DNA of 64,000 nucleotides from the NCBI RefSeq assembly GCF_044647545.1, contig NZ_CP172818.1; one strand, given 5' to 3'. The notes below the pieces were generated by a model. It had not been told where the DNA came from, made no database searches, and saw only the letters and a program-made list of their open reading frames with translations. The DNA is from Escherichia coli. Lineage in GTDB: Bacteria > Pseudomonadota > Gammaproteobacteria > Enterobacterales > Enterobacteriaceae. Made by a program: the position numbers and the translations under genes. Shown one piece after another: positions 9,128 to 28,297 of this stretch (positions are counted from its first letter, which is position 1; the number at the start of each line of letters is the position of its first letter).

Positions 9128-9260
9128 TAGCAAAACCGCACTATCGGGATAACGCTACAGGAGAAGGCGATTAATCTATTTTCCGGAAACAAGATGATTA
9201 TTCAAAAACTCCTGTCAAATTGCCTTTCGCCCTGAAAATGAATAGTCAAATATCTGTTTT

Positions 9261-9299
9261 AACTAATTAGCGTTGCTGTACATGCAACGCTAATTAGTT
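9261..9299. repeat. 39-bp hairpin-forming palindrome (16-bp perfect arms, 7-nt loop) at the 3' ends of ydbL and feaR
   Basis: AACTAATTAGCGTTGC-tgtacat-GCAACGCTAATTAGTT read directly; abuts the feaR stop codon (9298-9300); no flanking T-run. Confidence 0.8.
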
Positions 9300-10203
9300 A
9301 GCGGAATTTACGTCGATACTCGCCTGGCGTCATCCCAAAGCGTTGCTTAAATACCGTTGAAAAATGACTCTGGTCGGAAAATCCCCAATGAAAGCCAATG
9401 CCTGCCAGTTTTTCATCATCTGCGGCATGGCGAATCGCATCTGCACAAAAATCGAGACGACGGTTACGGATATATTGCGCGACTACCAAACCTTTATCGG
9501 CAAACATTCGGTACAAACTACGTACTGACATACCTGTCTCTCCGGCTATCCACTCCGGGCGTAATATCTCTTCGCGAATATTATCGTCTATCAACGTAAC
9601 CACTTTTTGAAACTGACGTTCACGACGAGGTTGAACAGATTCCCGCTGATGAAGTACCGGGCGCAGCAGACACACCATCGCCTGTAGCGCAGCTTCACTT
9701 TCTGTTTCAGAAAGTGCCGGATTATTCATGCTCTCCTGTAACAGGCGATGACTGAGTTGCACCATGGGTAAGTCAGCGTCCAGTCTTTCTGCGCAGATAG
9801 GTTTTTGATGGGGAAAATATTGTTCCAGCAGAGTGCGTGGCAAAAGTAATGAAATCTGTTTAGAAGACTCCTGCCAGTAAAGCGAACAGGGGCGTGAGGC
9901 ATCGAGTAACGTAATATCGCCAGCGCCAATCTGCACCTGACGCTCATCCTGCTCCATTATTGCCTGACCACTAAGCTGAAAAACGGTGTAAAACCAGGCA
10001 TCGTCGCTGCCTTTTACTTCCTGCCAGGTGCGGGATAAATTCACCCCGCTGGTTGTCACGGTACTCAGCTTTAGTCCTTTGGCAAAATGCGTGTCCAGTA
10101 CACCCGTGTAACGCTCAGTCAGCAGGCGTCCGGTAAAATTTCCGCATACCTGATTGATTTGGGAAAGCCATTGCTGAAACTCATTATCCACTGCGGGGTT
10201 CAT
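9298..10203 (-). CDS. feaR: AraC/XylS-family transcriptional activator of feaB/tynA, 301 aa
   Basis: 301-aa ORF with C-terminal AraC-type HTH; divergent from feaB. Confidence 0.9.
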   Translation of the reverse strand: MNPAVDNEFQQWLSQINQVCGNFTGRLLTERYTGVLDTHFAKGLKLSTVTTSGVNLSRTWQEVKGSDDAWFYTVFQLSGQAIMEQDERQVQIGAGDITLLDASRPCSLYWQESSKQISLLLPRTLLEQYFPHQKPICAERLDADLPMVQLSHRLLQESMNNPALSETESEAALQAMVCLLRPVLHQRESVQPRRERQFQKVVTLIDDNIREEILRPEWIAGETGMSVRSLYRMFADKGLVVAQYIRNRRLDFCADAIRHAADDEKLAGIGFHWGFSDQSHFSTVFKQRFGMTPGEYRRKFR

Positions 10204-10322
10204 GGCACGTTTTCGCTCTGTGAAATGTATTTTTATTGTTGCATTTGTGTTGCAATAAACGAAGCTAATGAGCCTGACTATAGGAAATAAGTCTTGTCAG
10301 GCATAGAGACATAAGCGGTTAT

Positions 10323-10368
10323 TGTCACGATTTGCGGAGCTTGTCACAGCTGACAAAGCGAATGTCAC
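10323..10368 (+). promoter_or_regulatory. three direct TGTCAC repeats in the feaR-feaB intergenic region (candidate FeaR operator / feaB promoter)
   Basis: TGTCAC at 10323, 10342 and 10363, spaced 19-21 bp, about 70-110 bp upstream of the feaB ATG. Confidence 0.45.
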
Positions 10369-10435
10369 AGCGAAAAAAGTGACTTTTCTTGTCGCTGCGT
10401 ACACTGAAATCACACTGGGTAAATAATAAGGAAAA

Positions 10436-11932
10436 GTGATGACAGAGCCGCATGTAGCAGTATTAAGCCAGGTCCAACAGTTTCTCGATCGTCAACACGG
10501 TCTTTATATTGATGGTCGTCCTGGCCCCGCACAAAGTGAAAAACGGTTGGCGATCTTTGATCCGGCCACCGGGCAAGAAATTGCGTCTACTGCTGATGCC
10601 AACGAAGCGGATGTAGATAACGCAGTCATGTCTGCCTGGCGGGCCTTTGTCTCGCGTCGCTGGGCCGGGCGATTACCCGCAGAGCGTGAACGTATTCTGC
10701 TACGTTTTGCTGATCTGGTGGAGCAGCACAGTGAGGAGCTGGCGCAACTGGAAACCCTGGAGCAAGGCAAGTCAATTGCCATTTCCCGTGCTTTTGAAGT
10801 GGGCTGTACGCTGAACTGGATGCGTTATACCGCCGGGTTAACGACCAAAATCGCGGGTAAAACGCTGGACTTGTCGATTCCCTTACCCCAGGGGGCGCGT
10901 TATCAGGCCTGGACGCGTAAAGAGCCGGTTGGCGTAGTGGCGGGAATTGTGCCATGGAACTTTCCGTTGATGATTGGTATGTGGAAGGTGATGCCAGCAC
11001 TGGCAGCAGGCTGTTCAATCGTGATTAAGCCTTCGGAAACCACGCCACTGACGATGTTGCGCGTGGCGGAACTGGCCAGCGAGGCTGGTATCCCTGATGG
11101 CGTTTTTAATGTCGTCACCGGGTCAGGTGCTGTATGCGGCGCGGCCCTGACGTCACATCCTCATGTTGCGAAAATCAGTTTTACCGGTTCAACCGCGACG
11201 GGAAAAGGTATTGCCAGAACTGCTGCTGATCACTTAACGCGTGTAACGCTGGAACTGGGCGGTAAAAACCCGGCAATTGTATTAAAAGATGCTGATCCGC
11301 AATGGGTTATTGAAGGCTTGATGACCGGAAGCTTCCTGAATCAAGGGCAAGTATGCGCCGCCAGTTCGCGAATTTATATTGAAGCGCCGTTGTTTGACAC
11401 GCTGGTTAGTGGATTTGAGCAGGCGGTAAAATCGTTGCAAGTGGGACCGGGGATGTCACCTGTTGCACAGATTAACCCTTTGGTTTCTCGTGCGCACTGC
11501 GACAAAGTGTGTTCATTCCTCGACGATGCGCAGGCACAGCAAGCAGAGCTGATTCGCGGGTCGAATGGACCACCAGAGGTATTATGTTGCGCCAACGCTA
11601 GTGCGGTAAAATCCCGATGCTAAATTGCGCTTAACTCGTGAAGAGGTGTTTGGTCCGGTGGTAAACCTGGTGCGAGTAAGCGGTGGAAGAGGCGTTACAA
11701 CTGGCAAACGACACGGAATATGGCTTAACTGCCAGTGTCTGGACGCAAAATCTCTCCAGGCTCTGGAATATAGCGATCGCTTACAGGCAGGGACGGTGTG
11801 GGTAAACAGCCATACCTTGATTGACGCTAACTACCGTTTGGTGGGATGAAGCAGTCAGGAACGGGCCGTGATTTTGGCCCCGACTGGCTGGACGGTTGGT
11901 GTGAAACTAAGTCGGTGTGTGTACGGTATTAA
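10436..11932 (+). pseudogene. feaB: phenylacetaldehyde dehydrogenase, frameshifted in its 3' third
   Basis: First ~385 codons intact (ORF 10436-11623, aldehyde dehydrogenase family); expected length 499 aa. Remainder recoverable only in shifted frames (ORF 11625-11849 [18 protein letters not shown]...); original stop context ...KSVCVRY* at 11930-11932. Confidence 0.8.
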
Positions 11933-11953
11933 TATTGGTTCGCTAATTAAGTA

Positions 11954-11979
11954 AAAAACGGCACCTGGTGCCGTTTTTT
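11954..11979. terminator. bidirectional intrinsic terminator between convergent feaB and tynA
   Basis: A6-CGGCACC..GGTGCCG-T6 hairpin flanked by A and T runs. Confidence 0.7.
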
Positions 11980-11991
11980 GTCTGAAAACAA

Positions 11992-14283
11992 TCACTTATC
12001 TTTCTTCAGCGCCCCTAGCGTTGGCGTTTCATAAAGAAGTTCCATGGTTTAAGCAGAGTATGTACCCATTCGGTCGGCATAATCGGCCACTCTTCAGCAC
12101 GGGCCACATGTGTGGTGCCGGTGGGTCATCCAGACAACGGCGTCGGTGTTGTCCAGCGACTCGTTATCTTTACTGTATTGTCCAAGACCGGTGTCATCAG
12201 TAGAACGGTTCAGGATATTTGCCTTCCGGGAAACGCTCGCCAGGATGATAACGCGTTACCCAGAAAGCTGCTTTGTCCATAAAGCTTAAACGATGATAGA
12301 TCCACTCATCCCAGGCGCCACTGGGCACCTTTTGCTACCGGGTGAGTACCGCCTGCATAAGGAATAATTTGATAGGAAACTGGATTGCCCATGCGGTTCT
12401 CTTTGTTGCGGGTTACTCAACAGACGAATCATGCCCCGGATCAAACTACGGCATCCTGTTCATTGCCGATGTTGTACTGATTAACTTGCATCAAGGTACT
12501 GGTGCGTCGGCCACCGGCAGTATTCGGTTTCCACTGGGTCCATCGCCACCAGGCTGTTATTCTCGCCATCTACATAAGGAATCGAGGCAGAAATTATCGA
12601 TCTGTTTGGTGTCAGTACCCACGATACTGTGATCGATAAGCGTGCCGTAGCGCGTGTCATCTTTCGCCGTCTCATCGTGCATGGTTTTCGCTTTAACACC
12701 TTTCACCGCTTCGATGCCCGTAGCACCGGCATCAATGCCAATAGTGCCGTTTTCATGGAAGATCCAGTCAAAATGTAGTCATAGTTACCCACTGTACTGA
12801 TCCAGCGCACCACTGACTCCCAGCATTCAGGTACTGACGTTGGGCTGGCCCATTTCCTGATGCTTATACTCCGGCCCGGCATAACGTTTCAAATACCGCG
12901 ATAGCGCGAGGATCTCCATCGGCACGCCAGTGTAGTCGGCGATGGTTTCATTAAGGAGCACTGCGTTAGACGGGGCATCTTTACCACGGCGAAATTGGTG
13001 AGGTTAGCGTGCCCATACCGTAGTCACCAGAGTCCAGATACGCTTTAAAGTACCAGCCAATATCCAGGATCACCGTAAGGCACAATAATGTCGCCGAGGA
13101 GAACCTTCGTGCATGACTTTGCGTTTGGTGCCGATATTGGTATATAGTCACGGTGGAGATCATAGGCCCGACGCGAGAGTTCATGCTGAGGTGAAAATCC
13201 CAGTTCCGCCAGTGAATAGTATCTCGCCAGTAATGGTGTAATTTTTACCTTCAGGCTCAATGATTTGCATAGGCTTGACTGCCGGAGCAACGCGGTCACG
13301 GCTATCAAATGGGCGTGCGGTCATTCACACGGAACTCCGGACCTTCTTCAATCTTAACGATTTTTTTCTGTTTCTGATCAACGACCGCCACCAGGTTTTC
13401 GATGGGATGTGCCCAGTAGTTCCATCGCCGACAGTCAAGATAGCTGATGACTTTGAGCAACCGGGCATCTTGTTTCAGGCCATCTTTACCATCGAAATAA
13501 CCTACGGTCAGCGGCGTGGTAATCACTTTTTTCGCATCAGTAATACCGCGTTTCTTCACGGCAGCGGCAAATTCTTCACTGTTGTTAATAATGTTCTGCA
13601 CACTGGCGAAATCATCCAGCAACACCATACCCGTGGCGTGTTTAATGGGTTCCAGGAGAGCAGTTTGTTGTTTTGCAGATCCACCACCGCTTCGATGATA
13701 TGTTTGCCGTCGAGCATAATGACGTCGGCTTTGCGCGGCTGGTCAACCGGTTTGTTTTCCAGCGCAAACGCCCAGACAGCTTCTTTATCTGGCGGTAGCA
13801 GGAGATCTCAGTAAAACAGGGTATTGGGTTTGAAGTCCCGCGGAAGCTTTAACAATTTCAACGGCCTGTTTAATTTCGTACCACAGTTCACGCATTAAGT
13901 GGGTGAGGGCGCTTTTATTACCTGAAAGGTTTGATCCAGACCGGACTGGAAAACATCGTTAATAAAGGTGTCGCAAAACCCAGGCCTTATTGTCTTTCAT
14001 ACGCTCCCGGCACTTGCAGTGCCAAGGTAGCCATTAACAATTGCTGTTTTGCGCACCAGGCTTCACTTTCACGTACGCGCCATCTTTAATCAGGGTAAAG
14101 ATCTGGGCGTAGTCGTCCCACTGCACATCGGCACCAAATTCTTTAAGCGTTTCATCCATTGGCACCATATGCGCTTCACCACCGTGGGCAAATACCGGCG
14201 CTTGCCAGGCGAAACTTAAGGCGACTGCCAACGCCAGGGTTGTTTTACGGGCAGAATCCGGAGAAAGAGGGCTTCCAGTTATT
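11992..14283 (-). pseudogene. tynA: copper/topaquinone amine oxidase (tyramine oxidase), heavily frameshifted
   Basis: Minus-strand fragments 14034-14315, 13305-13628, 13045-13308, 12981-13184 and 12481-12699 translate to successive pieces of TynA (e.g. ARKTTLALAVALSFAWQAPVFAHGGEAHMVPMD; MVLLDDFASVQNIINNSEEFAAAVKKRGITDAKK) separated by frame changes; stop ...LKKDK* at 11992-11994; start codon region also altered. Expected 757 aa. Confidence 0.75.
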
Positions 14284-14485
14284 AACCTCGTCAGATGTTG
14301 TGTTCTTGTTAGCAACCGCGCTCTGTGGGCGGTTTAGTCAGGTTCACATTATGAGTACTGATGCAAAGAAATCCTGCACCTCAGAGTTATTTGGCAGGTG
14401 TGCCCACTTTTTCATACAGTGGGTGCCCTGAAAATCAATGTACACATCATGCATAATGTGACAACGTCACAAAAGTTAGTGAAAT

Positions 14486-14516
14486 GAAAAAGGGCAACTG
14501 TTCGGGCCGTTGCCCT
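14486..14516 (-). terminator. intrinsic terminator downstream of paaZ
   Basis: GGGCAAC..GTTGCCC hairpin followed on the minus strand by a T5 run. Confidence 0.6.
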
Positions 14517-14527
14517 TCATTCACCGA

Positions 14528-16563
14528 TTAATCGACAAAATCACCATATCCTGGCCACCAGCGTCAGAATTGAATACAGCGCCACCGGGGTTTGATGCTG
14601 ATTGAATACCTCTACCGCCCATTCCACCACCTGTTGGTTTTTCTTCTGCGCTACGCTGTTTTTTCAGCGTCTTGCGCTTACAGGTGAGACGCACCTGGAT
14701 GGTATCGCCTGGCTTTACGGGTTCGATAAGCGCAAGTTTTCCAGCCCATAATTAGCAATGACCGGACCGACACCGGCATCGACAAACAGACCCGCAGAGC
14801 CGCAGAAAAAGCACAAAATACCCATGCACCACACGCTCACCGAAAATAGATTCGGCAGCAGCAGAATATTATCCATATGCGCATAGAAATAATCGCCGCT
14901 GAGGCAAGCAAAGTTAACAATATCGGCCTCTGTCATTGTGCGGCGGGAGTGGCAGGTATCCGCCTGGTTGTAGCTCCTCAAAATATTTGCGGAACGGATG
15001 AATACGATCTTCTTCGACTTTCGCACCACGCACCCACTGTTTACTGATAGCTGCAAGCATCGTCGGACTACCCTGAACAGCGGTTCGCTGCGTGTGATCC
15101 TTCACCCGCTCGTAAACCACCTAATTCTTCACCGCCTCCTGCGCGACCAGGCCCACCATGTAACAGTTGTGGCAGTCGGAGAGCCATGCCGGTGGATTCT
15201 TTTGCCGATTCCTCATTGAGGATCTGAATTCGCCCATGCGTACGTGCCGCGTCGGTAATAAACTGACGCGCAATTTGCGGATCAGCCGTCACCAGCGTTC
15301 CGCAAGGCTACCGCCGCCTGCACAAGCCAGTTGCAGAGCATGTCGCTGGTTTTGTGCTGGCATCAGCGTTGCGACAGGGCCAAAGGCTTCTGTTGCATGT
15401 ACCGCCGGTGTTTCATCCGGCTGCGGACAGTACAATAAGGTTGGCGGGAAAGAGCACCCGCAGCAGATAAATCCGCCTGACCACCGAGGCGAATCTCGCA
15501 TCCTGCAGCCAGCAATATGTTCACTTTTTCCTGCACATCGGCACGCTGCTCAGCATTTACCAGTGCGCCCATATTCACGCCTTCCTGAGCAGGATCACCG
15601 ACCACGACTTTCTGTAATCGCGCAACCAGGACGATTCACTGACAGCATTAACCAATGCCTGCGGCGCGATAATCCGCCGGATTGCCGTACATTTTTGCCC
15701 GGCTTTTGTGGTCATCTCACGCACAACTTCACGAATAAACAGCGCAAACTCCGAGTTAAATGCGGGTAACATCTTCGCCCAGTACGCAGCAGTTCAGGGA
15801 ATCAGCTTCCATAGTGAAGGGGATAGATTTGGCGACGATATTTGGCTGAACTCGCGGCGTCTCTGCAGGTCGCCGCTGACCCGTGAAAGTCACCACATCC
15901 TGGCTGTCCAGATAATCCAAAAGGTCGCCCGCACTACCGCAGATCAGACTAATTGCGCCTTCGGGAACAAGACCACTATCGACAATTGATTTCACCATCG
16001 CCTGAGTACGTTGGGCCGTCGCGGTAGCTGGTTTGATGATGGCTGGCATTCCGCCCAGCCACGTTGGTGCCAGCTTCCGGCGTTTTGCCACAGGGGAAGT
16101 TAAAGGCGTTAATATGCACTGCCACGCCTGAGCTTTGAGGTCAGTACATGGCGCGCGGCAAATCCACCTTCTTTCGATAAGGGGATCAATTCATCTTCCG
16201 GCCACAGCGTATCGTCGGCGGCTGCCCGGCTACCGAGGCTGGCGTAAGTAAATAACGTCCCAATGCCACCTTCAAATCAACCGAACTGTTGCCGCGTTGC
16301 GCCTGTTTGCGCAGAAAGACATAGAAGCGCTCTTTTTTCACTCAGCAGATGTTTAGCGACCGCTTTAAGCATCGCCGCACGTTCGATAAAGGTCATCACG
16401 CAGAAGCAGCCTTTTCAATGGCAAACTGCAACGGGCCACCGCCATATAGACCTTTCACTGGTCACTTCCCATAACGCCTCGCCGCTGATAGCGTGGTGAA
16501 TCAAACGGCTACCACCCCGCCAGACTGCCAGGTACCGGATAAGAAACTGGCTAACTGCTGCAT
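14528..16563 (-). pseudogene. paaZ: bifunctional oxepin-CoA hydrolase / aldehyde dehydrogenase, multiply frameshifted
   Basis: ATG intact at 16561-16563 and stop ...GDFVD* at 14528-14530, but interior split into fragments (15756-16091, 15575-15772, 15363-15605, 15068-15292, 14715-15056) that each match PaaZ segments; span 2036 nt versus 2046 expected (681 aa). Confidence 0.75.
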
Positions 16564-16792
16564 CGCTACTCTCCAGATGTTTCACATTTATGTTGCTAAT
16601 AGTTAAATTGCGAATCATAAAAAGCAAGGGTTCTTTTAACGAAATGTTAACTATGCAAATATGTATCACAACTGCGGAAAACATTAATGCACTGATAAAT
16701 AATGATTTATAAAAAATCGGGTGCGAAATCCGTCACAGTTCAAGCATACAAAATTTGTGATTTTAGTTAACCATTGTGTAACTTTCATAAAC

Positions 16793-16834
16793 AATGTGAT
16801 TCGTGTTTTTAATTAATTCGCGAACTTGGAATCG
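16793..16834. promoter_or_regulatory. PaaX-type operator half-site in the paaZ-paaA divergent promoter region
   Basis: AATGTGATTCGTGTT at 16793-16807 fits the PaaX box consensus WWTRTGATTCGYGWT as I remember it; an imperfect inverted partner GAATCG lies 26 nt downstream. Confidence 0.45.
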
Positions 16835-16847
16835 TAAAGGTAATAAC

Positions 16848-17773
16848 ATAACCCAAGAAGAACGCTTTGAGCAACGGATAGCCCAGGAAACGGCTATCGA
16901 GCCGCAGGACTGGATGCCAATAAGAAAGCACTGATCCGCCAGATTGGGCAGCATGCACACTGCAAATTGTGGTATGTTCCTGAAGGTAACTGGATCACTG
17001 GCGCACGACCTTTTGCAGCATAAAGCCATTCTGTTCGCCAAAGTCCAGGATGAAGCCGGTCATCGTCTGTATCTCTATAGCGCCGCCGAAACACTGGGCT
17101 GCACAGAGAAGACATCTACCAAAAAATGCTCAAACAACGATAAATATTCCTCCATCTTTAATTATCCGACATTGGTCTCCAGGGGCTGATATCGGCGTTA
17201 TCGGCTGGCTGGTGGAGTAGCAGCGATCGTCAATCAGGTGGCGTTATGTCGCACTTCTTATGGCCCGTATGCCAGAGCAATGGTGAAGATCTGCAAAGAA
17301 GAGAGTTTTTCACCAGCGTCAGGGGTTTGAAGCCTGCATGGCACTGGCGCAGGCGGCGAAGGACGCTCAAAAGCAGATGTTGCAAGACGCCATTAACCGT
17401 TTCTGGTGGCCAGCCTTAATGATGTTCGGGCCAAACGATGATAACTCGCCAAACAGCGCCAGAAGTACCGCCTGGAAAATCAAACGTTTCACCAACGACG
17501 AACTCGCCAGCGTTTCGTGGATAACACCATTCCACAGGTTGAAATGCTCGGTATGACCGTTCCTGACCCGGATCTGCATTTTGACACTGAAAGCGGTCAC
17601 TACCGCTTTGGTGGAAATCAACTGGCAGGAGTTTAACGAAGTAATTAACGGTCGCCGGAATTTGTAATCAGGAGAGGCTCGACGCCAAACGTAAAGCCTG
17701 GGAAGAAGGTACCTGGGTACGGGAAGCAGCGCTGGCCCATGCACAAAAACAACTTGCCCGTAAGGTCGCATAA
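16848..17773 (+). pseudogene. paaA: ring 1,2-phenylacetyl-CoA epoxidase subunit A, start codon lost and frameshifted
   Basis: Conserved N-terminus reads I-TQEERFEQRIAQETAIEPQDW with ATA in place of ATG at 16848-16850; later pieces (e.g. 17338-17556 MALAQAAKDAQKQMLQDAINRFWWPALMMFGPNDDNSPNSARS) in other frames; stop at 17771-17773. Expected 309 aa. Confidence 0.75.
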
Positions 17774-17784
17774 GGAGATTCAAA

Positions 17785-18069
17785 ATGAGTAATGTTTATT
17801 GGCCGTTATACGAAGTTTACCCGTTCGTGGCAAACAGGGCTTATCACACCGCCATGTTGGCAGTTTTTACATGCTGCCGATGAGCGGATGGCACTGAAAA
17901 TGCCGGTGATTGTTACACCGTCGTAGCGAAGGATGTTCAATTTGGGTGGTGAAGGCGAGTGAAATTGTTGCCTCGCAACCGGAAGAACGCGGTGAATTTT
18001 TTGATCCGGCTGAAGCAAGGTCTATCGCCATCCAACGTTTTACACCATCCCTGATGGCATTCAACATGA
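17785..18069 (+). pseudogene. paaB: epoxidase subunit B, frameshifted
   Basis: ATG at 17785 with MSNVYWPLYEV N-terminus; body recovered in a shifted frame (17910-18149 ...SEGCSIWVVKASEIVASQPEERGEFFDPAE...). Expected 95 aa; 3' end approximate. Confidence 0.65.
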
Positions 18070-18077
18070 GGTCGGAA

Positions 18078-18820
18078 ATGAATCAGTTAACGGCTTACAC
18101 CTTCGCCTGGGCGATAACTGCCTGGTGCTTCCAGCGGTTGGGTGAATAGTGCGGTCATGCACCGGAACTGGAAATCGATCTCGCACTGGCAAATATTGGA
18201 CTCGATTTATTAGGCCAGGCACGCAACTTCTTATCGTATGCCGCTGAATTAGCGGGAGAAGGCGATGAAGATACCCTGGCCTTCACCCCAACAAGCACCA
18301 GTTCAGCAACTTATTGTTGGTTGAACAGCCAAACGGCAATTTTGCCGACAACCGTCGCCAGTATTTCATCGATGCATGGCATGTGGCGCTCTTTACCATT
18401 CTGATGGAGAGCCGTGATCCGCGACTGGCGGCGATTTCTGCAAAGCGATTAAAGAAGCGCGTTATAGCCTGCGTTTTATTCGTGGCTGGCTGGAGCAACT
18501 GGGCAATGGTACTGACGTATACGGGCGAAAGAATGCCAGCAGGCCATCAACAAGTTGTGGCGTTTTACCGCCGAACTGTAGATGCCGACGAGATTGATAT
18601 TGCACTGAGTGAAGAGGGTATTGCGGTTGATCCACGCGCTTTTACGCGCAGCGTGGGAAGCCGAAGTTTTTGCCGGGATCAACGAAGCCACATTCAACGT
18701 ACCGCAGAGCAGGCGTATCGCACTGGCGGTAAAAAAGGACTGCATACCGAACACCTTGGACCCATGCTGGCAGAAATGCAGTTATTGTTTGAGCGTGTCT
18801 TGCCCGGTCAGCAATGGTAA
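18078..18820 (+). pseudogene. paaC: epoxidase subunit C, frameshifted
   Basis: Start MNQLTAYT at 18078; C-terminal portion in ORF 18314-18820 ends ...LPGQQW*; span 743 nt, not a multiple of 3, versus 747 expected (248 aa). Confidence 0.7.
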
Positions 18821-18834
18821 CAGAGGAGGTGGGT

Positions 18835-19325
18835 ATGCAACGTATCAGCCACCATTCCGCCGCCACAGGTTCATCCAGATATGGGCGCTACTGGGCGCGA
18901 TCCCGGACCGGAGATCCCGGTGCTGACCATTACCGATTTAGGCATGGTGCGTAATGTGACACAGATGGAAAGAATGGGTGATCGGCTTTACGCCGACTTA
19001 TTCCGGTTGTCCGGCAACGGAACGTTGATTGGCGCGATACGTGAGGCAATGACAACCCACGGGTTTACCCGTACGGTTGTGCTGCAACTCGACCCGGCAT
19101 GGACCACCGACTGGATGACCCCCGATGCCCGTGAGCGTCTGCGACGGTATGGCATTAGCCCGCCCGGCCGGAACAGTTGCCGGCCCATTTGCCGCCAGAA
19201 GTACGTTGCCCGCGCTGCGCCAGCGTCCATCCACACTTATCAGTGAATTTGGTTCCACGGCCTGCAAAGCATTGTACCGCTGCGATAGTTGCCACAAACC
19301 TTTCGATTATTTCAAATGTATTTGA
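18835..19325 (+). pseudogene. paaD: epoxidase subunit D, frameshifted
   Basis: ATG at 18835; fragments 18881-19246 (IPVLTITDLGMVRNVTQM...) and 19125-19325 (...CDSCHKPFDYFKCI*) in different frames. Confidence 0.7.
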
Positions 19326-19332
19326 GGATGCC

Positions 19333-20397
19333 ATGACAACGTTTCATTCCTTAACAGTGGCAAAAGTGGGCCCGGAAACCCGTGATGCGGTGACCATTAC
19401 CTTTGCATGCAGCCTTTGCAGGAGGCGTATCACTTTCGCCCCGGTCAACATTTGACCTTAAAAGCCAGTCTTGATGGTGAAGAATTAGCCATTGTTCTCC
19501 ATTTGCCGCAGCTACCTGCCTGGCGAAATTAGTGTGGCGGTGAAAGCCATTGAAGGCGGACGTTTCTCCCGCTATGCCCGCGAACACATCCGCCAGGGTA
19601 TGACGCTGGAGGTCATGGTGCCGCAGGGGCATTTCGGCTATCAGCCACAGGCCGAACACCAGGGCCGCTATCTGGCTATTGCAGCAGGATCAGGTATTAC
19701 GCCAATGCTGGCGATTATCGCCACCACTTTCAAACCGAGCCTGAAAGTCAGTTCACCCTGATCTACGGTAACCGTACCAGCCAGAGCATGATGTTTCGCC
19801 AGGCACTGGCAGACCTGAAAGACAAATATCCTCAGCGTTTACAGTTGTTGTGCATTTTCAGTCAGGAAACCCTCGACAGCGATCTGCTTCACGGGCGTAT
19901 TGACGGTGAAAAATTACGTGGCTTGGGGCCTCGCTCATTGATTTTTCGTCTTTATGATGAGGCGTTTGCTTTGTGGTCCGGCGGCGATGATGGATGAGAC
20001 GGAAGCCGCCTTAAAAGCACTGGGAATGCCAGATAAAACCATTCATCTGGAGCGGTTTAATACGCCTGGCACGCGCGTCAAAGCGTCGCGTTAACGTGCA
20101 AAGTGACGGACAAAAGTGACTGTACGTCAGGATCGGCGGGATCGGGAAATCGTGCTTAATGCCGACGATGAAAGCATTCTCGATGCGGCATTGCGCCAGG
20201 GGGCTGATCTGCCCTATGCCTGCAAAGGCGGCGTCTGTGCGACCTGCAAATGCAAAGTGCTGCGTGGCGAAGTGGCGATGGAAACCAATTACAGTCTGGA
20301 ACCGGATGAACTGGCCGCAGGTTATGTGTTGAGTTGCCAGGCACTGCCGCTGACCAGCGATGTGGTGGTTGACTTTGACGCGAAGGGGATGGCATCA
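19333..20397 (+). pseudogene. paaE: epoxidase reductase subunit E (ferredoxin-NADPH reductase), frameshifted and stop codon lost
   Basis: Start MTTFHSLTVAK at 19333; fragments 19492-19761 and 20116-20406 (2Fe-2S motif CKGGVCATCKCK) in different frames; the expected overlapping TGA stop reads TCA at 20395-20397. Confidence 0.7.
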
Positions 20398-21172
20398 GCG
20401 AACTGATCGTCAGCCGTCAGCAACAGGTGCTTGCTGCTGACCCTTAACCGTCCCGCCGCACGTAATGCGCTGAGAATAATGCCCTTCTGACGCAACTGGT
20501 AAATGAACTGGAAGCTGCGGCTACCGATAGCAGCATTTCGGTCTGTGTGATTACCGGTAATGCACGCTTTTTTGCCGCTGGGGCCGATCTCAACGAAATG
20601 GCAGAAAAAGATCTCGCGGCCACCTTAAACGATACACGTCCGCAGCTATGGGCGCGATTGCAGGCCTTTAATAAACCACTTATCGCAGCCGTCAATGGTT
20701 ACGCGCTTGGGGCGGGTTGCGAACTGGCATTGTTGTGCGATGTGGTGGTTGCCGGAGAGAACGCGCGTTTTGCGTTGCTTTTTACAGGAAATCACTCTCG
20801 GCATCATGCCAGGCGCAGGAGGAACGCAACGTTTAATCCGTAGTGTCGGTAAATCGTTAGCCAGCAAAAATGGTGCTGAGCGGAGAAAGTATCACCGCTC
20901 AGCAAGCACAGCAGGCCGGGCTGGTTAGCAACATCTTCCCCAGCGATTTAACCCTCGAATACGCCTTACAGCTGGCATCGAAAATGGCACGTCACTCGCC
21001 GCTGGCCTTACAAGCGGCAAAGCAAGCGCTGCGCCAGTCGCAGGAAGTGGCTTTGCAAGCCGGACTTGCCCAGGAGCGACAGTTATTCACCTTGCTGGCG
21101 GCAACAGAAGATCGTCATGAAGGCATCTCCGCTTTCTTACAAAAACGCACGCCCGACTTTAAAGGACGCTAA
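20394..21172 (+). pseudogene. paaF: 2,3-dehydroadipyl-CoA hydratase (enoyl-CoA hydratase), start codon lost and frameshifted in the 5' two-thirds
   Basis: N-terminus reads I-SELIVSRQQ with ATC in place of ATG at 20394-20396; frame breaks near 20775 and 20850; last 100 codons (20870-21172) intact, ending ...RTPDFKGR*. Expected 255 aa. Confidence 0.75.
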
Positions 21173-21960
21173 TGATGGAATTCATCCTCAGTCATGTAGA
21201 AAAGGGCGTGATGACACTAACGCTCAACCGCCCGGAACGCCTGAACAGTTTTAATGATGAGATGCACGCACAACTGGCAGAGTGCCTGAAACAGGTCGAG
21301 CGCGACGACACTATCCGTTGCCTGTTACTTACAGGTGCCGGGCGCGGATTTTGTGCTGGTCAGGATCTTAACGATCGTAACGTTGATCCCACAGGCCCCG
21401 CACCGGATTTAGGGATGTCAGTTGAACGTTTCTATAACCCACTGGTACGTCGCCTGGCAAAACTGCCAAAACCGGTGATCTGTGCAGTCAATGGCGTGGC
21501 GGCAGGGGCAGGCGCAACACTGGCACTGGGGGGCGACATCGTTATTGCTGCCCGTTCAGCAAAATTCGTCATGGCGTTTAGTAAGTTAGGCTTAATACCC
21601 GATTGCGGTGGAACCTGGTTACTGCCACGCGTTGCCGGACGAGCGCGCGCCATGGGGCTGGCACTGCTGGGGAATCAACTGAGTGCTGAACAGGCGCACG
21701 AATGGGGGATGATCTGGCAGGTTGTTGATGATGAAACGCTGGCAGATACCGCGCAACAGCTGGCACGGCATCTGGCGACACAACCGACATTTGGTCTTGG
21801 ACTTATCAAGCAAGCGATAAATAGCGCTGAAACCAATACGCTCGATACGCAACTGGATCTGGAACGTGACTATCAGCGACTTGCCGGACGGAGCGCAGAT
21901 TATCGTGAAGGTGTCAGTGCGTTCCTGGCTAAACGCTCACCGCAGTTCACGGGGAAATAG
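21172..21960 (+). CDS. paaG: 1,2-epoxyphenylacetyl-CoA isomerase (crotonase fold), 262 aa
   Basis: Intact 262-aa ORF MMEFILSHVEKGVMTLTLNRP...; start overlaps paaF stop by 1 bp. Confidence 0.9.
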   Translation: MMEFILSHVEKGVMTLTLNRPERLNSFNDEMHAQLAECLKQVERDDTIRCLLLTGAGRGFCAGQDLNDRNVDPTGPAPDLGMSVERFYNPLVRRLAKLPKPVICAVNGVAAGAGATLALGGDIVIAARSAKFVMAFSKLGLIPDCGGTWLLPRVAGRARAMGLALLGNQLSAEQAHEWGMIWQVVDDETLADTAQQLARHLATQPTFGLGLIKQAINSAETNTLDTQLDLERDYQRLAGRSADYREGVSAFLAKRSPQFTGK

Positions 21961-21961
21961 C

Positions 21962-23389
21962 ATGATGATAAATGTGCAAACTGTGGCAGTGATTGGGAGC
22001 GGCACCATGGGGGCAGGCATTGCTGAAGTTGCTGCCAGTCATGGACACCAGGTTTTACTGTATGACATTTCTGCTGAAGCGCTGACCCGCGCAATCGACG
22101 GGATACACGCGCGGCTAAATTCACGCGTGACGCGGGGAAAACTGACTGCTGAAACCTGTGAACGCACATTGAAACGCCTGATCCCGGTGACCGATATTCA
22201 CGCGCTGGCAGCTGCGGACCTGGTCATTGAAGCGGCGTCTGAACGTCTGGAAGTCAAAAAAGCGCTCTTTGCACAGCTGGCGGAAGTTTGCCCGCCACAA
22301 ACGCTATTGACCACTAACACTTCGTCAATCTCTATAACCGCGATTGCTGCGGAGATAAAAAATCCTGAACGTGTTGCGGGGCTGCATTTTTTTAACCCGG
22401 CACCGGTGATGAAGTTGGTGGAGGTGGTCAGTGGGCTGGCAACGGCGGCGGAAGTTGTTGAGCAGTTGTGTGAACTAACGTTGAGTTGGGGTAAGCAGCC
22501 TGTGCGCTGTCATTCGACTCCTGGATTTATCGTTAACCGTGTTGCGCGTCCTTATTATTCCGAGGCCTGGCGGGCACTGGAAGAGCAGGTTGCTGCACCA
22601 GAAGTGATTGACGCTGCACTTCGCGATGGCGCTGGTTTCCCGATGGGGCCGCTGGAATTAACCGATCTGATTGGTCAGGACGTCAATTTTGCTGTCACCT
22701 GTTCGGTGTTTAACGCTTTCTGGCAGGAGCGTCGTTTTTTACCTTCGCTGGTGCAACAGGAACTGGTGATTGGTGGACGGTTGGGCAAGAAAAGTGGGCT
22801 GGGCGTGTACGACTGGCGCGCGGAACGTGAGGCAGTTGTTGGCCTGGAAGCGGTAAGCGACAGTTTTAGCCCAATGAAAGTAGAAAAGAAAAGTGACGGT
22901 GTCACGGAAATTGACGATGTTTTATTGATTGAGACACAAGGCGAGACGGCACAGGCGCTGGCAATACGACTGGCACGCCCGGTGGTAGTGATCGATAAAA
23001 TGGCGGGCAAGGTGGTGACCATTGCTGCTGCAGCGGTGAACCCGGACTCAGCGACCCGCAAGGCCATTTATTACCTGCAACAGCAGGGCAAAACAGTGCT
23101 GCAAATTGCAGATTACCCAGGAATGCTGATTTGGCGAACGGTAGCAATGATCATCAATGAAGCCCTTGATGCGCTTCAAAAAGGCGTGGCCTCTGAACAG
23201 GATATCGATACCGCCATGCGTCTTGGGGTGAATTATCCATATGGCCCACTTGCCTGGGGAGCGCAACTTGGCTGGCAGCGAATATTAAGGCTCCTTGAAA
23301 ATCTACAGCATCACTATGGCGAAGAACGCTATCGCCCATGTTCATTGCTGCGCCAACGGGCGCTTCTGGAGAGCGGTTATGAGTCATAA
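21962..23389 (+). CDS. paaH: 3-hydroxyadipyl-CoA dehydrogenase, 475 aa
   Basis: ORF 21866-23389 trimmed to MMINVQTVAVIGSGTMGAGIA (Rossmann motif) directly after the paaG stop; 475 aa. Confidence 0.9.
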   Translation: MMINVQTVAVIGSGTMGAGIAEVAASHGHQVLLYDISAEALTRAIDGIHARLNSRVTRGKLTAETCERTLKRLIPVTDIHALAAADLVIEAASERLEVKKALFAQLAEVCPPQTLLTTNTSSISITAIAAEIKNPERVAGLHFFNPAPVMKLVEVVSGLATAAEVVEQLCELTLSWGKQPVRCHSTPGFIVNRVARPYYSEAWRALEEQVAAPEVIDAALRDGAGFPMGPLELTDLIGQDVNFAVTCSVFNAFWQERRFLPSLVQQELVIGGRLGKKSGLGVYDWRAEREAVVGLEAVSDSFSPMKVEKKSDGVTEIDDVLLIETQGETAQALAIRLARPVVVIDKMAGKVVTIAAAAVNPDSATRKAIYYLQQQGKTVLQIADYPGMLIWRTVAMIINEALDALQKGVASEQDIDTAMRLGVNYPYGPLAWGAQLGWQRILRLLENLQHHYGEERYRPCSLLRQRALLESGYES

Positions 23390-23801
23390 GGCCTGGCAAA
23401 ATGCCCATGCAATGTATGAGAACGATGCCTGCGCCAAAGCGCTTGGCATCGACATTATCTCAATGGATGAAGGCTTTGCTGTAGTGACCATGACCGTCAC
23501 TGCACAAATGCTTAACGGTCATCAAAGTTGCCACGGCGGGCAGCTATTTTCACTGGCTGATACTGCCTTTGCCTACGCCTGCAATAGCCAGGGGCTGGCA
23601 GCCGTCGCTTCTGCCTGCACGATTGATTTTTTGCGTCCAGGCTTTGCCGGAGACACCTTAACTGCTACTGCGCAGGTACGTCATCAGGGCAAGCAAACCG
23701 GTGTTTACGACATCGAAATTGTTAACCAACAACAAAAAACGGTTGCGCTGTTTCGCGGTAAATCTCACCGCATCGGCGGCACCATTACAGGAGAAGCCTG
23801 A
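23379..23801 (+). CDS. paaI: hotdog-fold acyl-CoA thioesterase, 140 aa
   Basis: ORF 23295-23801 trimmed to MSHKAWQNAHAMYEND; 140 aa. Confidence 0.85.
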   Translation: MSHKAWQNAHAMYENDACAKALGIDIISMDEGFAVVTMTVTAQMLNGHQSCHGGQLFSLADTAFAYACNSQGLAAVASACTIDFLRPGFAGDTLTATAQVRHQGKQTGVYDIEIVNQQQKTVALFRGKSHRIGGTITGEA

Positions 23802-25006
23802 TGCGTGAAGCCTTTATTTGTGACGGAATTCGTACGCCAATTGGTCGCTACGGCGGGGCATTATCAAGTGTTCGGGCTGATGATCTGGCTGCTATCCCTT
23901 TGCGGGAACTGCTGGTGCGAAACCCGCGTCTCGATGCGGAGTGTATCGATGATGTGATCCTCGGCTGTGCTAATCAGGCGGGAGAAGATAACCGTAACGT
24001 AGCCCGGATGGCGACTTTACTGGCGGGGCTGCCGCAGAGTGTTTCCGGCACAACCATTAACCGCTTGTGTGGTTCCGGGCTGGACGCACTGGGGTTTGCC
24101 GCACGGGCGATTAAAGCGGGCGATGGCGATTTGCTGATCGCCGGTGGCGTGGAGTCAATGTCACGGGCACCGTTTGTTATGGGCAAGGCAGCCAGTGCAT
24201 TTTCTCGTCAGGCTGAGATGTTCGATACCACTATTGGCTGGCGATTTGTGAACCCGCTCATGGCTCAGCAATTTGGAACTGACAGCATGCCGGAAACGGC
24301 AGAGAATGTAGCTGAACTGTTAAAAATCTCACGAGAAGATCAAGATAGTTTTGCGCTACGCAGTCAGCAACGTACGGCAAAAGCGCAATCCTCAGGCATT
24401 CTGGCTGAGGAGATTGTTCCGGTTGTGTTGAAAAACAAGAAAGGTGTTGTAACAGAAATACAACATGATGAGCATCTGCGCCCGGAAACGACGCTGGAAC
24501 AGTTACGTGGGTTAAAAGCACCATTTCGTGCCAATGGGGTGATTACCGCAGGCAATGCTTCCGGGGTGAATGACGGAGCCGCTGCGTTGATTATTGCCAG
24601 TGAACAGATGGCAGCAGCGCAAGGACTGACACCGCGGGCGCGTATCGTAGCCATGGCAACCGCCGGGGTGGAACCGCGCCTGATGGGGCTTGGTCCGGTG
24701 CCTGCAACTCGCCGGGTGCTGGAACGCGCAGGGCTGAGTATTCACGATATGGACGTGATTGAACTGAACGAAGCGTTCGCGGCCCAGGCGTTGGGTGTAC
24801 TACGCGAATTGGGGCTGCCTGATGATGCCCCACATGTTAACCCCAACGGAGGCGCTATCGCCTTAGGCCATCCGTTGGGAATGAGTGGTGCCCGCCTGGC
24901 ACTGGCTGCCAGCCATGAGCTGCATCGGCGTAACGGTCGTTACGCATTGTGCACCATGTGCATCGGTGTCGGTCAGGGCATCGCCATGATTCTGGAGCGT
25001 GTTTGA
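23801..25006 (+). CDS. paaJ: 3-oxoadipyl-CoA / 3-oxo-5,6-dehydrosuberyl-CoA thiolase, 401 aa
   Basis: Intact 401-aa thiolase ORF ([19 protein letters not shown]...CIGVGQG). Confidence 0.9.
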
Positions 25007-25032
25007 GCATATCAACCTGCGAGTACCCTACA

Positions 25033-26346
25033 ATGATAACCAATACAAAGCTTGACCCGATTGAAACCGCGTCTGTTGATGAGTTACAGGCGTTGCAAAC
25101 ACAGCGTCTGAAATGGACGCTCAAACACGCGTATGAAAATGTGCCGATGTATCGGCGCAAATTCGACGCAGCAGGCGTACATCCTGATGATTTCAGGGAA
25201 CTTTCAGACCTGCGTAAATTTCCCTGTACCACCAAACAGGATCTGCGCGACAACTATCCCTTTGACACCTTTGCCGTGCCAATGGAACAAGTGGTGCGCA
25301 TTCATGCTTCTTCGGGAACCACAGGTAAACCGACAGTTGTCGGCTATACGCAAAACGATATTGATAACTGGGCCAATATTGTAGCGCGTTCTTTGCGTGC
25401 GGCAGGGGGCTCGCCCAAAGACAAAATTCATGTTGCCTATGGTTACGGCCTGTTTACTGGTGGGCTGGGTGCGCACTATGGTGCCGAACGTCTGGGCGCT
25501 ACGGTGATCCCGATGTCTGGCGGGCAGACGGAAAAACAAGCGCAACTGATCCGTGATTTTCAACCAGATATGATCATGGTTACGCCATCTTATTGCCTTA
25601 ACCTGATTGAAGAGCTGGAGCGGCAGTTGGGCGGTGATGCCAGCGGTTGCTCGCTGCGGGTTGGAGTATTTGGTGCTGAGCCGTGGACACAGGCCATGCG
25701 TAAAGAGATTGAGCGTCGCCTGGGGATCACCGCACTGGATATTTATGGCCTGTCAGAAGTGATGGGGCCGGGGGTGGCGATGGAGTGTCTGGAAACTACC
25801 GACGGCCCAACCATTTGGGAAGATCATTTCTATCCTGAAATTGTTAATCCTCATGACGGCACACCGCTTGCCGATGGTGAACATGGCGAACTGTTATTCA
25901 CCACGCTGACCAAAGAAGCATTGCCGGTCATTCGTTACCGCACGCGTGATTTAACCCGACTGTTACCAGGAACGGCGCGGACTATGCGCCGCATGGATCG
26001 CATCAGCGGACGCAGCGATGACATGTTGATTATTCGCGGTGTAAATGTCTTTCCGTCACAACTGGAAGAAGAGATTGTCAAATTCGAACATTTATCGCCG
26101 CATTACCAACTGGAGGTGAACCGCCGGGGGCATCTTGATTCACTTTCTGTGAAAGTGGAGTTGAAAGAAAGTAGCCTGACATTGACGCATGAGCAGCGTT
26201 GCCAGGTATGCCACCAGCTGCGCCATCGGATTAAGTCGATGGTGGGGATCTCTACCGATGTGATGATCGTTAACTGTGGCAGTATCCCGCGTTCAGAAGG
26301 CAAGGCGTGTCGGGTGTTTGATCTGCGCAATATTGTTGGTGCCTGA
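25033..26346 (+). CDS. paaK: phenylacetate-CoA ligase, 437 aa
   Basis: ORF 24949-26346 trimmed to MITNTKLDPIETASVDELQALQ; adenylate-forming motif SSGTTGKPT present. Confidence 0.9.
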   Translation: MITNTKLDPIETASVDELQALQTQRLKWTLKHAYENVPMYRRKFDAAGVHPDDFRELSDLRKFPCTTKQDLRDNYPFDTFAVPMEQVVRIHASSGTTGKPTVVGYTQNDIDNWANIVARSLRAAGGSPKDKIHVAYGYGLFTGGLGAHYGAERLGATVIPMSGGQTEKQAQLIRDFQPDMIMVTPSYCLNLIEELERQLGGDASGCSLRVGVFGAEPWTQAMRKEIERRLGITALDIYGLSEVMGPGVAMECLETTDGPTIWEDHFYPEIVNPHDGTPLADGEHGELLFTTLTKEALPVIRYRTRDLTRLLPGTARTMRRMDRISGRSDDMLIIRGVNVFPSQLEEEIVKFEHLSPHYQLEVNRRGHLDSLSVKVELKESSLTLTHEQRCQVCHQLRHRIKSMVGISTDVMIVNCGSIPRSEGKACRVFDLRNIVGA

Positions 26347-26446
26347 CGTATCGTCTGGCCCTGGTGGGGTAAAGCGCCAGGGCCAGAAGTCGATACGACC
26401 TGTGCTATGATTCATAAATCACAACAATAACAACAGACTGAAGCGA

Positions 26447-27397
26447 ATGAGTAAACTTGATACTTTTATCCAACATGCTGTAAACGCTGTTCCGGTCAGT
26501 GGCACATCTTTGATCTCCTCTCTGTATGGTGATTCGCTTTCCCATCGTGGTGGTGAAATCTGGTTGGGTAGTCTGGCTGCTTTGCTGGAAGGGCTGGGAT
26601 TTGGTGAGCGTTTCGTGCGCACCGCTTTGTTTCGTCTTAATAAAGAAGGCTGGCTGGATGTTTCCCGCATCGGGCGACGCAGTTTCTATAGCCTCAGTGA
26701 TAAAGGCTTGCGCCTGACGCGACGGGCAGAAAGTAAAATTTATCGCGCAGAGCAACCTGCATGGGATGGTAAATGGCTCCTGTTGCTCTCGGAAGGTTTA
26801 GATAAATCAACGCTGGCTGATGTCAAAAAGCAGTTGATCTGGCAAGGTTTTGGCGCACTGGCACCCAGCCTGATGGCATCGCCGTCGCAAAAACTGGCCG
26901 ATGTACAGACACTTTTGCATGAAGCGGGTGTGGCGGATAACGTGATTTGTTTTGAAGCGCAAATACCACTGGCGCTTTCTCGCGCAGCACTGCGTGCCAG
27001 AGTAGAAGAGTGCTGGCATTTAACTGAACAAAATGCCATGTACGAAACCTTTATTCAGTCATTCCGCCCGCTGGTGCCGCTTTTAAAAGAGGCGGCAGAC
27101 GAGTTAACCCCGGAGCGGGCATTTCATATTCAGCTTTTACTGATCCATTTTTATCGCCGTGTCGTCCTTAAAGACCCATTGTTGCCGGAGGAGTTGCTTC
27201 CGGCACACTGGGCAGGGCATACGGCGCGTCAGCTGTGTATCAACATTTATCAGCGCGTAGCGCCTGCTGCTTTAGCGTTCGTTAGTGAAAAAGGTGAAAC
27301 CTCGGTCGGTGAATTGCCTGCGCCGGGAAGCCTGTATTTTCAACGTTTTGGCGGCTTGAATATTGAACAGGAGGCGTTATGCCAATTTATCAGATAG
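26447..27397 (+). CDS. paaX: phenylacetyl-CoA-responsive transcriptional repressor of the paa operon, 316 aa
   Basis: Intact 316-aa ORF; preceded by a TGATTC motif at 26407. Confidence 0.9.
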
Positions 27398-28038: not shown

Positions 28039-28297
28039 GTATTAATTCATACCGTTTTTTCATCATATAATTATTTATAATGAGAATGTGGTTTTAATTT
28101 GTAATTTATATTATATACACAATTTATATATTTCATGGTCTTTTTTTATTCACCTGAATTATAATTGTGAATTATAGGAAAGTATGTTTGATTAGATAAT
28201 AATCTACTGGCAATATTGGATGTCTTCTATGTTTTAAATAACTAATTGGTCGGGTTAGTGCATCCGGCTTTCTTTATATTCGCCAGAAGGATTTATT

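Follow-up and report, generated by a model that had tools for sequence, protein, structure and literature searches.

Altered start and stop codons within an error-dense feaB-paaF block of an Escherichia coli assembly, very probably of technical origin

The fea/tyn/paa region of Escherichia coli K-12 (feaRB-tynA-paaZ-paaABCDEFGHIJK-paaXY) is a known presence/absence polymorphism, the paa region being present in 3,158 of 5,426 complete E. coli genomes. Pseudogene decay in bacteria is known, for example, from Shigella and Mycobacterium leprae, and the decay of bacterial genes is deletion-biased. In a reference-guided consensus, positions that are not covered by reads keep the base of the reference (reference bias). 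For raw reads of Oxford Nanopore (ONT), a total error of about 5.7% was reported for bacteria, with deletions more frequent than mismatches and mismatches more frequent than insertions; in read orientation, A<->G changes were 3-5 times as frequent as transversions, and C<->T changes slightly more frequent than transversions (Delahaye & Nicolas 2021, PLoS One; PMC8486125).

The whole stretch of E. coli DNA analyzed in this study (hereafter the window) is 64 kb in length. It resembles the K-12 fea/tyn/paa region in gene order and DNA backbone. In the window, however, the 3' end of feaB, tynA, paaZ and paaA to paaF are unreadable. We consider it very likely that the unreadable block is an uncorrected patch of single-pass long-read quality in a chimeric, reference-templated assembly, and that the altered start and stop codons in it are ordinary members of this patch.

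Three sources of sequence in the window

The window was found to be composed of three sources: a backbone identical to EM10-18-28, fill identical to K-12, and a block of a third allele. The backbone occupies positions 1-9505 and 36916-64000. The left part shows 100% identity with genomes of the EM10-18-28 type and about 2% divergence from K-12, with the bias towards third codon positions of natural divergence (18:3:150 at codon positions 1, 2 and 3). The right part is 100%/99.98% identical to EM10-18-28, without the ISVsa5 that EM10-18-28 has in gapC. Fill identical to K-12 MG1655 was found at 9506-11572 (5' feaR and the start of feaB), at 20934-27241 (the end of paaF through paaX) and at 27969-36915 (ydbA with the K-12-specific IS2D and IS30C), and all three segments are absent from the backbone lineage. 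Between the latter two lies a backbone segment, 27242-27968, again 100% of the EM10-18-28 type, with a remnant of paaX and with paaY. Thus paaG to paaX are letter-perfect K-12, while paaY is the backbone allele save for two private deletions of 1 bp each in its 3' tail.

The switches between these sources are sharp. At the left switch, the last site discordant with K-12 is 9469 and the backbone identity stops at 9505; no difference from K-12 was found across 9470-11572 and 20934-27313. The EM10-18-28 lineage lacks all of the segments between the backbone parts (feaR'-paaX' and ydbA), and all four switches between backbone and K-12 coincide with deletion endpoints of this lineage. In EM10-18-28 the feaR'-paaX' junction lies at about 1320040 of NZ_CP063476.1. 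The whole window is nevertheless colinear with MG1655 in a single alignment. Small private errors were observed at coverage edges, namely the paaY deletions at about 27923 and 27956 and a garbled stretch of 20 bp just outside IS2 (30801-30820). Searched as a possible flank of a natural IS2 copy elsewhere, the latter matched no genome, the best hits being K-12 strains at 90.2%. An ydbA split by IS2 and IS30 occurs in 365 genomes, and the best 30 of these 365 include laboratory strains of K-12 such as MG1655, C600, J53 and ER1709.

These features resemble reference bias. K-12 DNA, including IS2 and IS30, stands exactly where the nearest genomes have deletions, the alleles of the sample stand elsewhere, the window keeps the MG1655 colinearity, and errors are found at the edges; the pipeline itself is deduced from the sequence. 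The K-12 mobile elements in ydbA are kept while the ISVsa5 of EM10-18-28 is absent, although the latter is a weak point, as a sister strain could lack ISVsa5. We ruled out that the window represents a K-12 strain, since the backbone is of the EM10-18-28 type and differs from K-12 by about 2%. The split ydbA and the four switches at deletion endpoints also ruled out that the region had been retained in a natural relative of EM10-18-28. The sequenced organism, therefore, probably has no paa cluster apart from paaY, and about 27 kb of the window (9506-27241 and 27969-36915) is probably foreign to it.

Ancestry and error spectrum of the block

The error-dense block extends over 9,361 bp (11573-20933), from the middle of feaB to the middle of paaF, so that both edges fall within genes. 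At 11573 the differences from K-12 rise from 0 to about 5 per 100 bp, and they return to 0 past 20933. The block contains 316 private substitutions (3.4%) and about 130-155 small indels, and its flanks contain no private changes.

Every gene from tynA to paaF is broken in the block. On the plus strand, feaB (10439-11932) is intact and identical to K-12 up to 11572, and then carries 8 indel events with the first stop at codon 395 of 500. On the minus strand, the tynA remnant (11992-14279) has 73 substitutions and 40 indel events with the first stop at codon 82 of 758, and the paaZ remnant (14528-16563) has 75 substitutions and 32 indel events with the first stop at codon 21. The remaining genes lie on the plus strand. 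The paaA remnant (16848-17773) has 40 substitutions, 18 indel events and a first stop at codon 29; the paaB, paaC and paaD remnants (17785-19325) have 6-12 indel events each; and in the paaE remnant (19333-20397), 27 substitutions and 10 indel events were counted, and the frame is first interrupted by a stop at codon 41. In paaF (20394-21172) the first 540 bp are broken by 15 substitutions and 4 indel events, one of which is an insertion of 7 bp at 20778; the sequence after 20933 is identical to K-12.

The ancestry of the block was analyzed at sites that separate strain BS-04 from K-12. The block has the BS-04-type base at all 79 such sites, whereas the K-12-type base occupies 7 of 7 informative sites in the left flank and 89 of 89 in the right one (20934-27241, where there are no differences from MG1655). 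The block thus derives as a single physical unit from a different strain, and the idea that it is mutated K-12 sequence was ruled out by the same 79 sites. It is contiguous, of a single non-K-12 ancestry and of a read-like length, and the boundaries of ancestry and of error coincide.

The private changes are shared by none of the 5,426 complete E. coli genomes. Among these genomes the best full-length identity was 95.2% for 16500-20600 and 93.7% for 16700-17900. One record was at least 99% identical to a part of 16500-20600. Since the densest sub-region (16700-17900) had no match of at least 99% in the complete E. coli genomes, this partial match is probably a short error-free stretch. A search with an exact 28-mer gave no match in the genome contig or metagenome contig collections, and neither the truncated FeaB nor the tail-shifted PaaY had an exact-protein match in the gene index.

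The private substitutions are distributed evenly over codon positions (93:91:97 at positions 1, 2 and 3), in contrast to the 79 inherited ones (17:6:47). The private changes thus carry no signal of selection, and this uniformity, taken by itself, is expected of a true pseudogene and of random read errors alike. The substitutions are asymmetric between the strands: G>A outnumbers C>T (82 vs 28, p=2.5e-7) and A>G outnumbers T>C (65 vs 13, p=1.8e-9), and the asymmetry is alike in genes on the plus and minus strands. The A<->G changes average 73.5 per type and the C<->T changes 20.5, compared with a mean of 16 for each type of transversion (4.6 and 1.3 times, respectively), and transversions account for 40% of the private substitutions. 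The substitutions are also strongly clustered, with 148 pairs within 3 nt where 30 were expected and a variance/mean ratio of 4.3. Garbled stretches are visible in the alignment of the block.

The indels are small and symmetric, with 80 deletions and 75 insertions relative to K-12, or 65 and 64 relative to BS-04. They amount to 109-128 deleted and 97-113 inserted bases, and the total error in the block, (316 + 206 to 241)/9361, is 5.6-6.0%. The initial annotation had argued that substitutions occur in the block alongside indels and that it is thus not a pure homopolymer artefact. Both statements hold: 316 substitutions stand beside 65-80 deletion and 64-75 insertion events, and just 36% of the 1-bp deletions fall in runs of at least 3 bases (17% expected), so that a pure homopolymer artefact does not account for the block. 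The changes are, nonetheless, not thereby biological.

Origin of the block

The block resembles ONT raw reads (PMC8486125) in its total error (5.6-6.0% vs 5.7%), in the excess of A<->G changes (4.6 vs 3-5 times transversions) and in that of C<->T changes (1.3 times), as well as in its bursty errors, its moderate enrichment of deletions in homopolymers and an asymmetry that is seen in read orientation alone. It differs from them in that mismatches (316) exceed deleted bases and insertions about equal deletions, and the platform is one that we infer. Taken together, the spectrum, the clustering, the indels, the edges, the ancestry and the chimeric context point to unpolished single-pass long-read sequence.

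The following course of events would explain the window. The sequenced organism is EM10-18-28-like, and its known relatives lack feaR'-paaX' and ydbA; the window has the MG1655 architecture nonetheless. A consensus may have been built on the MG1655 reference, whose bases would have been kept wherever reads were missing. One stray long read, derived from a different E. coli that carries paa, would then have overwritten the reference along its own length. Such a read, most likely an Oxford Nanopore read in plus orientation, could have come from a contaminant or from barcode bleed-through. Its read errors, about 6%, would have entered the record with it, and would have happened to strike the GTG of paaA, the ATG of tynA and the ATGA of paaE/paaF. 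Some points speak against this explanation. The block has more mismatches than deleted bases and about as many inserted as deleted bases, an order that differs from the published one for ONT, and a read simulator would yield an identical pattern.

If the block is such a technical artefact, its biological significance is very small and its value is practical. The window is unfit for inferring pseudogenization of phenylacetate and tyramine catabolism, unusual initiators or local hypermutation. It provides, on the other hand, a clean worked example of how read error can be told from decay in a consensus sequence. Codon-position uniformity together with a strand-tied excess of purine transitions, burstiness and symmetric small indels are useful tests, as are coincident boundaries of ancestry and error and reference-identical fill at deletion endpoints.

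It is worth considering an origin in silico, in which a long-read error simulator or a planted decoy degraded the block and the window is a constructed composite. The exact sequence is found in none of the collections searched and the error profile fits a standard ONT error model, as would be expected in such a case. The progenitor of the block is, however, a third natural allele and not the flanking K-12 sequence, and small private errors also occur at edges of coverage that are biologically meaningless, in the paaY tail and beside IS2. Both facts are awkward for a procedure that mutates a region and natural for read mapping, and we therefore regard an origin in silico as unlikely. Sequence alone cannot separate it from a pipeline artefact, and the feature is non-biological either way.

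De novo long-read assembly of a mixed culture, containing a wild isolate and a K-12 strain such as J53, with a stretch of low coverage left unpolished, appears to be quite improbable. This reading, which is an artefact explanation too, would account for K-12-only DNA within a wild backbone, and J53, a routine recipient in conjugation, is among the best 30 of the 365 genomes that share the split ydbA. K-12 reads would, however, span feaB-paaF together with its flanks, so that the block should be K-12-type, yet none of its 79 informative sites is.

Genuine decay was considered in two forms, in which a real, long-inactivated pseudogene array from feaB to paaF decayed in place, or was imported by recombination from a lineage where the decay had already taken place, and the start and stop changes are true mutations. 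The block has the frameshifts, premature stops and lost initiators of a decaying catabolic cluster, which is dispensable and which 42% of complete E. coli genomes lack. All of the block genes are disrupted, the private substitutions show no codon-position bias, as under relaxed selection, and the ancestry of the block differs from that of its flanks, as a recombination import would. Against these points, 3.4% private substitutions adjoin pristine flanks with no private change at all, and although all 79 informative sites match a common modern allele, the block carries 316 changes found in 0 of 5,426 genomes, no lesion being common to any relative. The excess of purine transitions follows one strand regardless of gene orientation, and the substitutions fall in tight bursts. 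Insertions equal deletions, without the deletion bias, large deletions or IS elements of pseudogene decay. In addition, the block is surrounded by K-12 reference set in a backbone that is not K-12, and the switches fall exactly on deletion endpoints. We therefore regard genuine decay as very improbable. More broadly, it is hardly credible that the block is real DNA, a decayed or hypermutated feaB-paaF from another E. coli in a strain that also has K-12-derived segments. If it were real, it would imply an unknown process by which 9.4 kb acquired substitutions and indels at about 6% with a strand bias, while the adjacent DNA stayed untouched.

Localized hypermutation of real DNA (by a targeted deaminase/T7 system, an error-prone polymerase or DGR-like retro-mutagenesis) would fit a sharply bounded tract with a transition-rich, strand-biased spectrum, but has a negligible probability given the 40% transversions and the about 130-155 indels, the co-occurrence of A>G and G>A on the same strand, which implies deamination of opposite strands, the differing ancestry of tract and flanks, and the divergently transcribed genes in the tract, owing to which no single transcript or template spans it.

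Altered start and stop codons

At the paaA start, 16848-16850 on the plus strand, the window reads ATA followed by ACC CAA GAA GAA CGC (TQEER...), as the initial annotation had noticed. It had described the change as ATG to ATA, which is wrong with respect to the reference codon. Since the annotated initiator of paaA is GTG both in K-12 MG1655 (1453927) and in strain BS-04, the change is GTG to ATA, that is, G>A at 16848 and 16850 in the base-by-base alignment with MG1655. The K-12-type signal, a GTG preceded by an AAGG ribosome-binding site, is thus absent and replaced by ATA.

At the overlap of the paaE stop and the paaF start (20394-20397, plus strand), direct reading confirmed ATCA followed by SELIVSRQQ. 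In the alignment with MG1655, the claimed change from ATGA is a single G>C at 20396, and the K-12-type overlap of the paaE TGA and the paaF ATG is therefore lost. The paaE stop is indeed altered, as had been proposed, but its loss is moot, because paaE is already broken by its indels and early stop and the local frame past ATCA meets another TGA only 3 codons on, at 20404-20406.

Both sites are thus really altered, and the only error of the initial annotation here was the reference codon of paaA. It had named, as grounds for withdrawal, a reference with ATA or ATCA at these sites or different initiators. The reference has neither, and the initiator of paaA does differ, being GTG, so that the second of these grounds applies in part; the site is altered all the same. 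Substitutions do stand beside indels, as that reading required, and the artefact appears to be of another kind than the homopolymer type against which it had argued. A third lost initiator, which had not been mentioned earlier, was found in tynA (14277-14279, minus strand), where ATG is destroyed and reads ACT.

In total, 4 of the 16 start and stop codons in the block are altered. With 6.2% of the reference positions of the block altered, circular shifts that preserve the clustering gave an expectation of 2.2 (P(>=4)=0.18). Start and stop codons are therefore altered at a frequency compatible with chance. Almost certainly, those altered in the paa genes are three of about 450 random errors and not biological mutations.

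The two substitutions in the paaA initiator belong to a 9-nt burst of four G>A changes in its ribosome-binding and initiator region (16842-16850, plus strand; at 16842, 16845, 16848 and 16850), which turns GGTGATGACGTGACC into GGTAATAACATAACC. An APOBEC-like origin of this burst at TpC was considered and dropped, since that strand shows an equal excess of A>G and transversions make up 40% of the private substitutions. The burst is typical of the clustering of substitutions throughout the block.

Altered start and stop codons in the block

The window was aligned with two references, K-12 MG1655 (NC_000913.3; hereafter K-12) and a second E. coli strain, BS-04. Direct reading of the window confirmed the altered codons reported at two places in the initial annotation. 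On the plus strand, the paaA initiator position (16848-16850) reads ATA, followed by ACC CAA GAA GAA CGC, and the overlap of the paaE stop and the paaF start (20394-20397) reads ATCA, followed by AGC GAA CTG ATC GTC. The alignment with K-12 upheld the change from ATGA to ATCA as a single G>C at 20396. For paaA, however, the reference codon had been taken wrongly as ATG: the annotated initiator is GTG in both K-12 and BS-04, and the change is hence GTG>ATA, comprising two of four G>A substitutions within 9 nt (16842, 16845, 16848 and 16850). The tynA initiator on the minus strand (14277-14279), missing from the earlier list, is also destroyed (ATG>ACT).

These sites lie in an error-dense block (11573-20933, 9,361 bp), in which 6.2% of the reference positions and 4 of the 16 start and stop codons are altered. 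When the altered positions were shifted circularly with their clustering kept, 2.2 start or stop codons were hit on average (P(>=4) = 0.18). The start and stop changes are therefore no more than random scatter at the density of the block would give. Since the genes concerned are already frameshifted within the first 18-82 codons, the changes are without functional meaning in themselves. The altered codons are present in the sequence text and are no real biological feature. The earlier argument that substitutions speak against a pure homopolymer artefact holds in this narrow sense, but the data point to a sequencing and assembly artefact of another kind.

Mosaic composition of the window

Compared with K-12, the zones 1-9470 and 36900-42900 carry about 2% substitutions and hardly any indels, and 150 of the 171 coding changes in the left zone fall at the third codon position; these differences are natural divergence. 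No difference from K-12 was found in 9470-11572 and 20934-27313. The block, which runs from mid-feaB to mid-paaF, showed 326 substitutions and 155 indel events, and all its genes are broken repeatedly (indel events: tynA 40, paaZ 32, paaA 18, paaB 6, paaC 12, paaD 11, paaE 10 and paaF 4).

The genome of strain EM10-18-28 (NZ_CP063476.1) is 100% identical to the window over 1-9505 and 36916-52915 and 99.98% identical over 52907-64000, and it matches 27242-27968 save for three 1-bp gaps. Thousands of assemblies encode a YdbH protein exactly like that of the window. The gene order after ydbL, found at three distinct places from 32 contigs, is feaR remnant, paaX remnant, paaY and pdxI; genomes of this kind, of which EM10-18-28 is one example, hence lack feaR'-paaX' and ydbA. 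In the window, K-12 sequence stands in all segments missing from genomes of the EM10-18-28 type. Part of this fill is a ydbA interrupted by IS2D and IS30C, an arrangement found in 365 complete genomes; among the best 30 of these are laboratory strains of K-12, e.g. MG1655, C600, J53 and ER1709.

The sequence type switches at 9505/9506, 11572/11573, 20933/20934, 27241/27242, 27968/27969 and 36915/36916. All four switches between the EM10-18-28-like backbone and K-12 sequence lie at deletion endpoints, which is automatic in reference-templated consensus calling and not expected from homologous recombination. The entire window forms one colinear alignment with MG1655 1437074-1501111, with no window-only insertion of at least 9 bp. 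The window is a mosaic of three sources, namely the EM10-18-28-like backbone, MG1655-identical fill in exactly the segments missing from the backbone lineage, and the error-dense block, whose source is a third E. coli allele. Probably about 27 kb of the window is foreign to the sequenced organism.

In a widespread E. coli lineage, a clean deletion fuses the 3' feaR remnant to the 3' paaX remnant (e.g. NZ_CP063476.1 1319888-1320247), and a second deletion removes ydbA. Only 3,158 of 5,426 complete E. coli genomes contain paaA-E DNA. In gapC, at about 52907-52915, EM10-18-28, the nearest of the natural genomes, has a 1,338-bp ISVsa5 insertion, which is absent from the window and K-12; this may be a difference between sister strains or an insertion dropped by a reference-based consensus.

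Ancestry and error profile of the block

The window, K-12 and BS-04 were compared with one another to sort the changes in the block into two classes. At 79 informative sites the window agreed with BS-04 against K-12, and at none with K-12 against BS-04, whereas the directly flanking DNA was of the K-12 type at 7/7 and 89/89 such sites. The block therefore goes back to another, common allele of E. coli. The 79 sites are distributed over the codon positions as 17:6:47, a signature of natural polymorphism. Ancestry changes just where the error-dense zone begins and ends.

The private substitutions, absent from both references (n = 316), are spread over the codon positions as 93:91:97. They are strongly clustered, with 148 neighbouring pairs at most 3 nt apart against 30 expected and a variance/mean of 4.3 in 468-bp bins. 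Their strand asymmetry is strong: G>A outnumbers C>T (82 vs 28, p = 2.5e-7) and A>G outnumbers T>C (65 vs 13, p = 1.8e-9). The asymmetry is alike in genes of both strands and hence follows the strand of the sequence, not transcription. The indels are of 1-8 bp and symmetric (deletions and insertions: 80 and 75 against K-12, 65 and 64 against BS-04), with only a moderate link to homopolymers. Some stretches are garbled in local alignment, such as CGACGGACGGATGAAAT > CAAACAACGA--TAAAT. At 16657-16670, in a Dam site region, GCGATCTGTATAG of the references became GCAAATATGTATCA, a single case in which a burst of errors covers a methylation motif. Such bursts are frequent with nanopore basecalling.

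None of the block's private lesions was found among the 5,426 complete E. coli genomes. One complete-genome record has at least 99% identity to part of 16500-20600. As the error-dense 16700-17900 gave no match of at least 99% in complete genomes, this record presumably reflects a short stretch free of errors.

Raw Oxford Nanopore reads of bacteria have a total error of about 5.7% (Delahaye & Nicolas, PMC8486125), similar to the 5.6-6.0% of the block. With read orientation taken into account, A<->G is 3-5 times as frequent as transversions in such reads and C<->T just slightly above them (PMC8486125); in the block the values are 4.6 and 1.3 times the mean transversion type. The sole discordance is that raw reads have deletions > mismatches > insertions (PMC8486125), whereas in the block mismatches exceed deletions and insertions about equal them. 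This point aside, the profile closely matches a single Oxford Nanopore read in plus orientation.

Proposed origin and errors at coverage edges

A consensus would have been called from the reads of an isolate lacking paa, with MG1655 as the reference, positions without read coverage keeping the reference base. One stray long read, derived from a different E. coli that has paa, would then have mapped into the uncovered region and been taken at depth 1, bringing the 79 real variants of its donor together with read errors at about 6%. Three of these error sites would be the changes in start and stop codons.

Degradation of the block in silico, which would be just as non-biological, seems unlikely to us. 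A mixed culture with K-12, assembled de novo, is still less probable, since the block is not of the K-12 type. True pseudogene decay would fit the lost codon bias, but the pristine flanks, the strand-tied asymmetry, the bursty changes, the lack of deletion bias, lesions found in 0 of 5,426 complete genomes and the chimeric context make it very improbable, marginally more so than a mixed culture. Targeted hypermutation is hardly credible given the indels, the transversions, the opposite-strand deamination logic and the ancestry of the block.

Outside the block, small private errors lie at coverage edges. The backbone-type paaY (27379-27967) has two private 1-bp deletions near its 3' end, at 27923 and 27956, found in neither K-12 nor EM10-18-28. 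A CCTGG Dcm-type motif precedes one of them, and the other lies in a CC run. They shift the tail, extending the ORF to 28038 (219 aa vs 196), and adjoin the edge of the ydbA fill. About 20 bp of ydbA bordering the left end of IS2 on the outside (30801-30820) are garbled relative to K-12, with 4 substitutions and 5 inserted bases. This stretch had no match among complete E. coli genomes (best 90.2%), and may reflect a mapped consensus distorted by IS2 reads that overhang from other loci.
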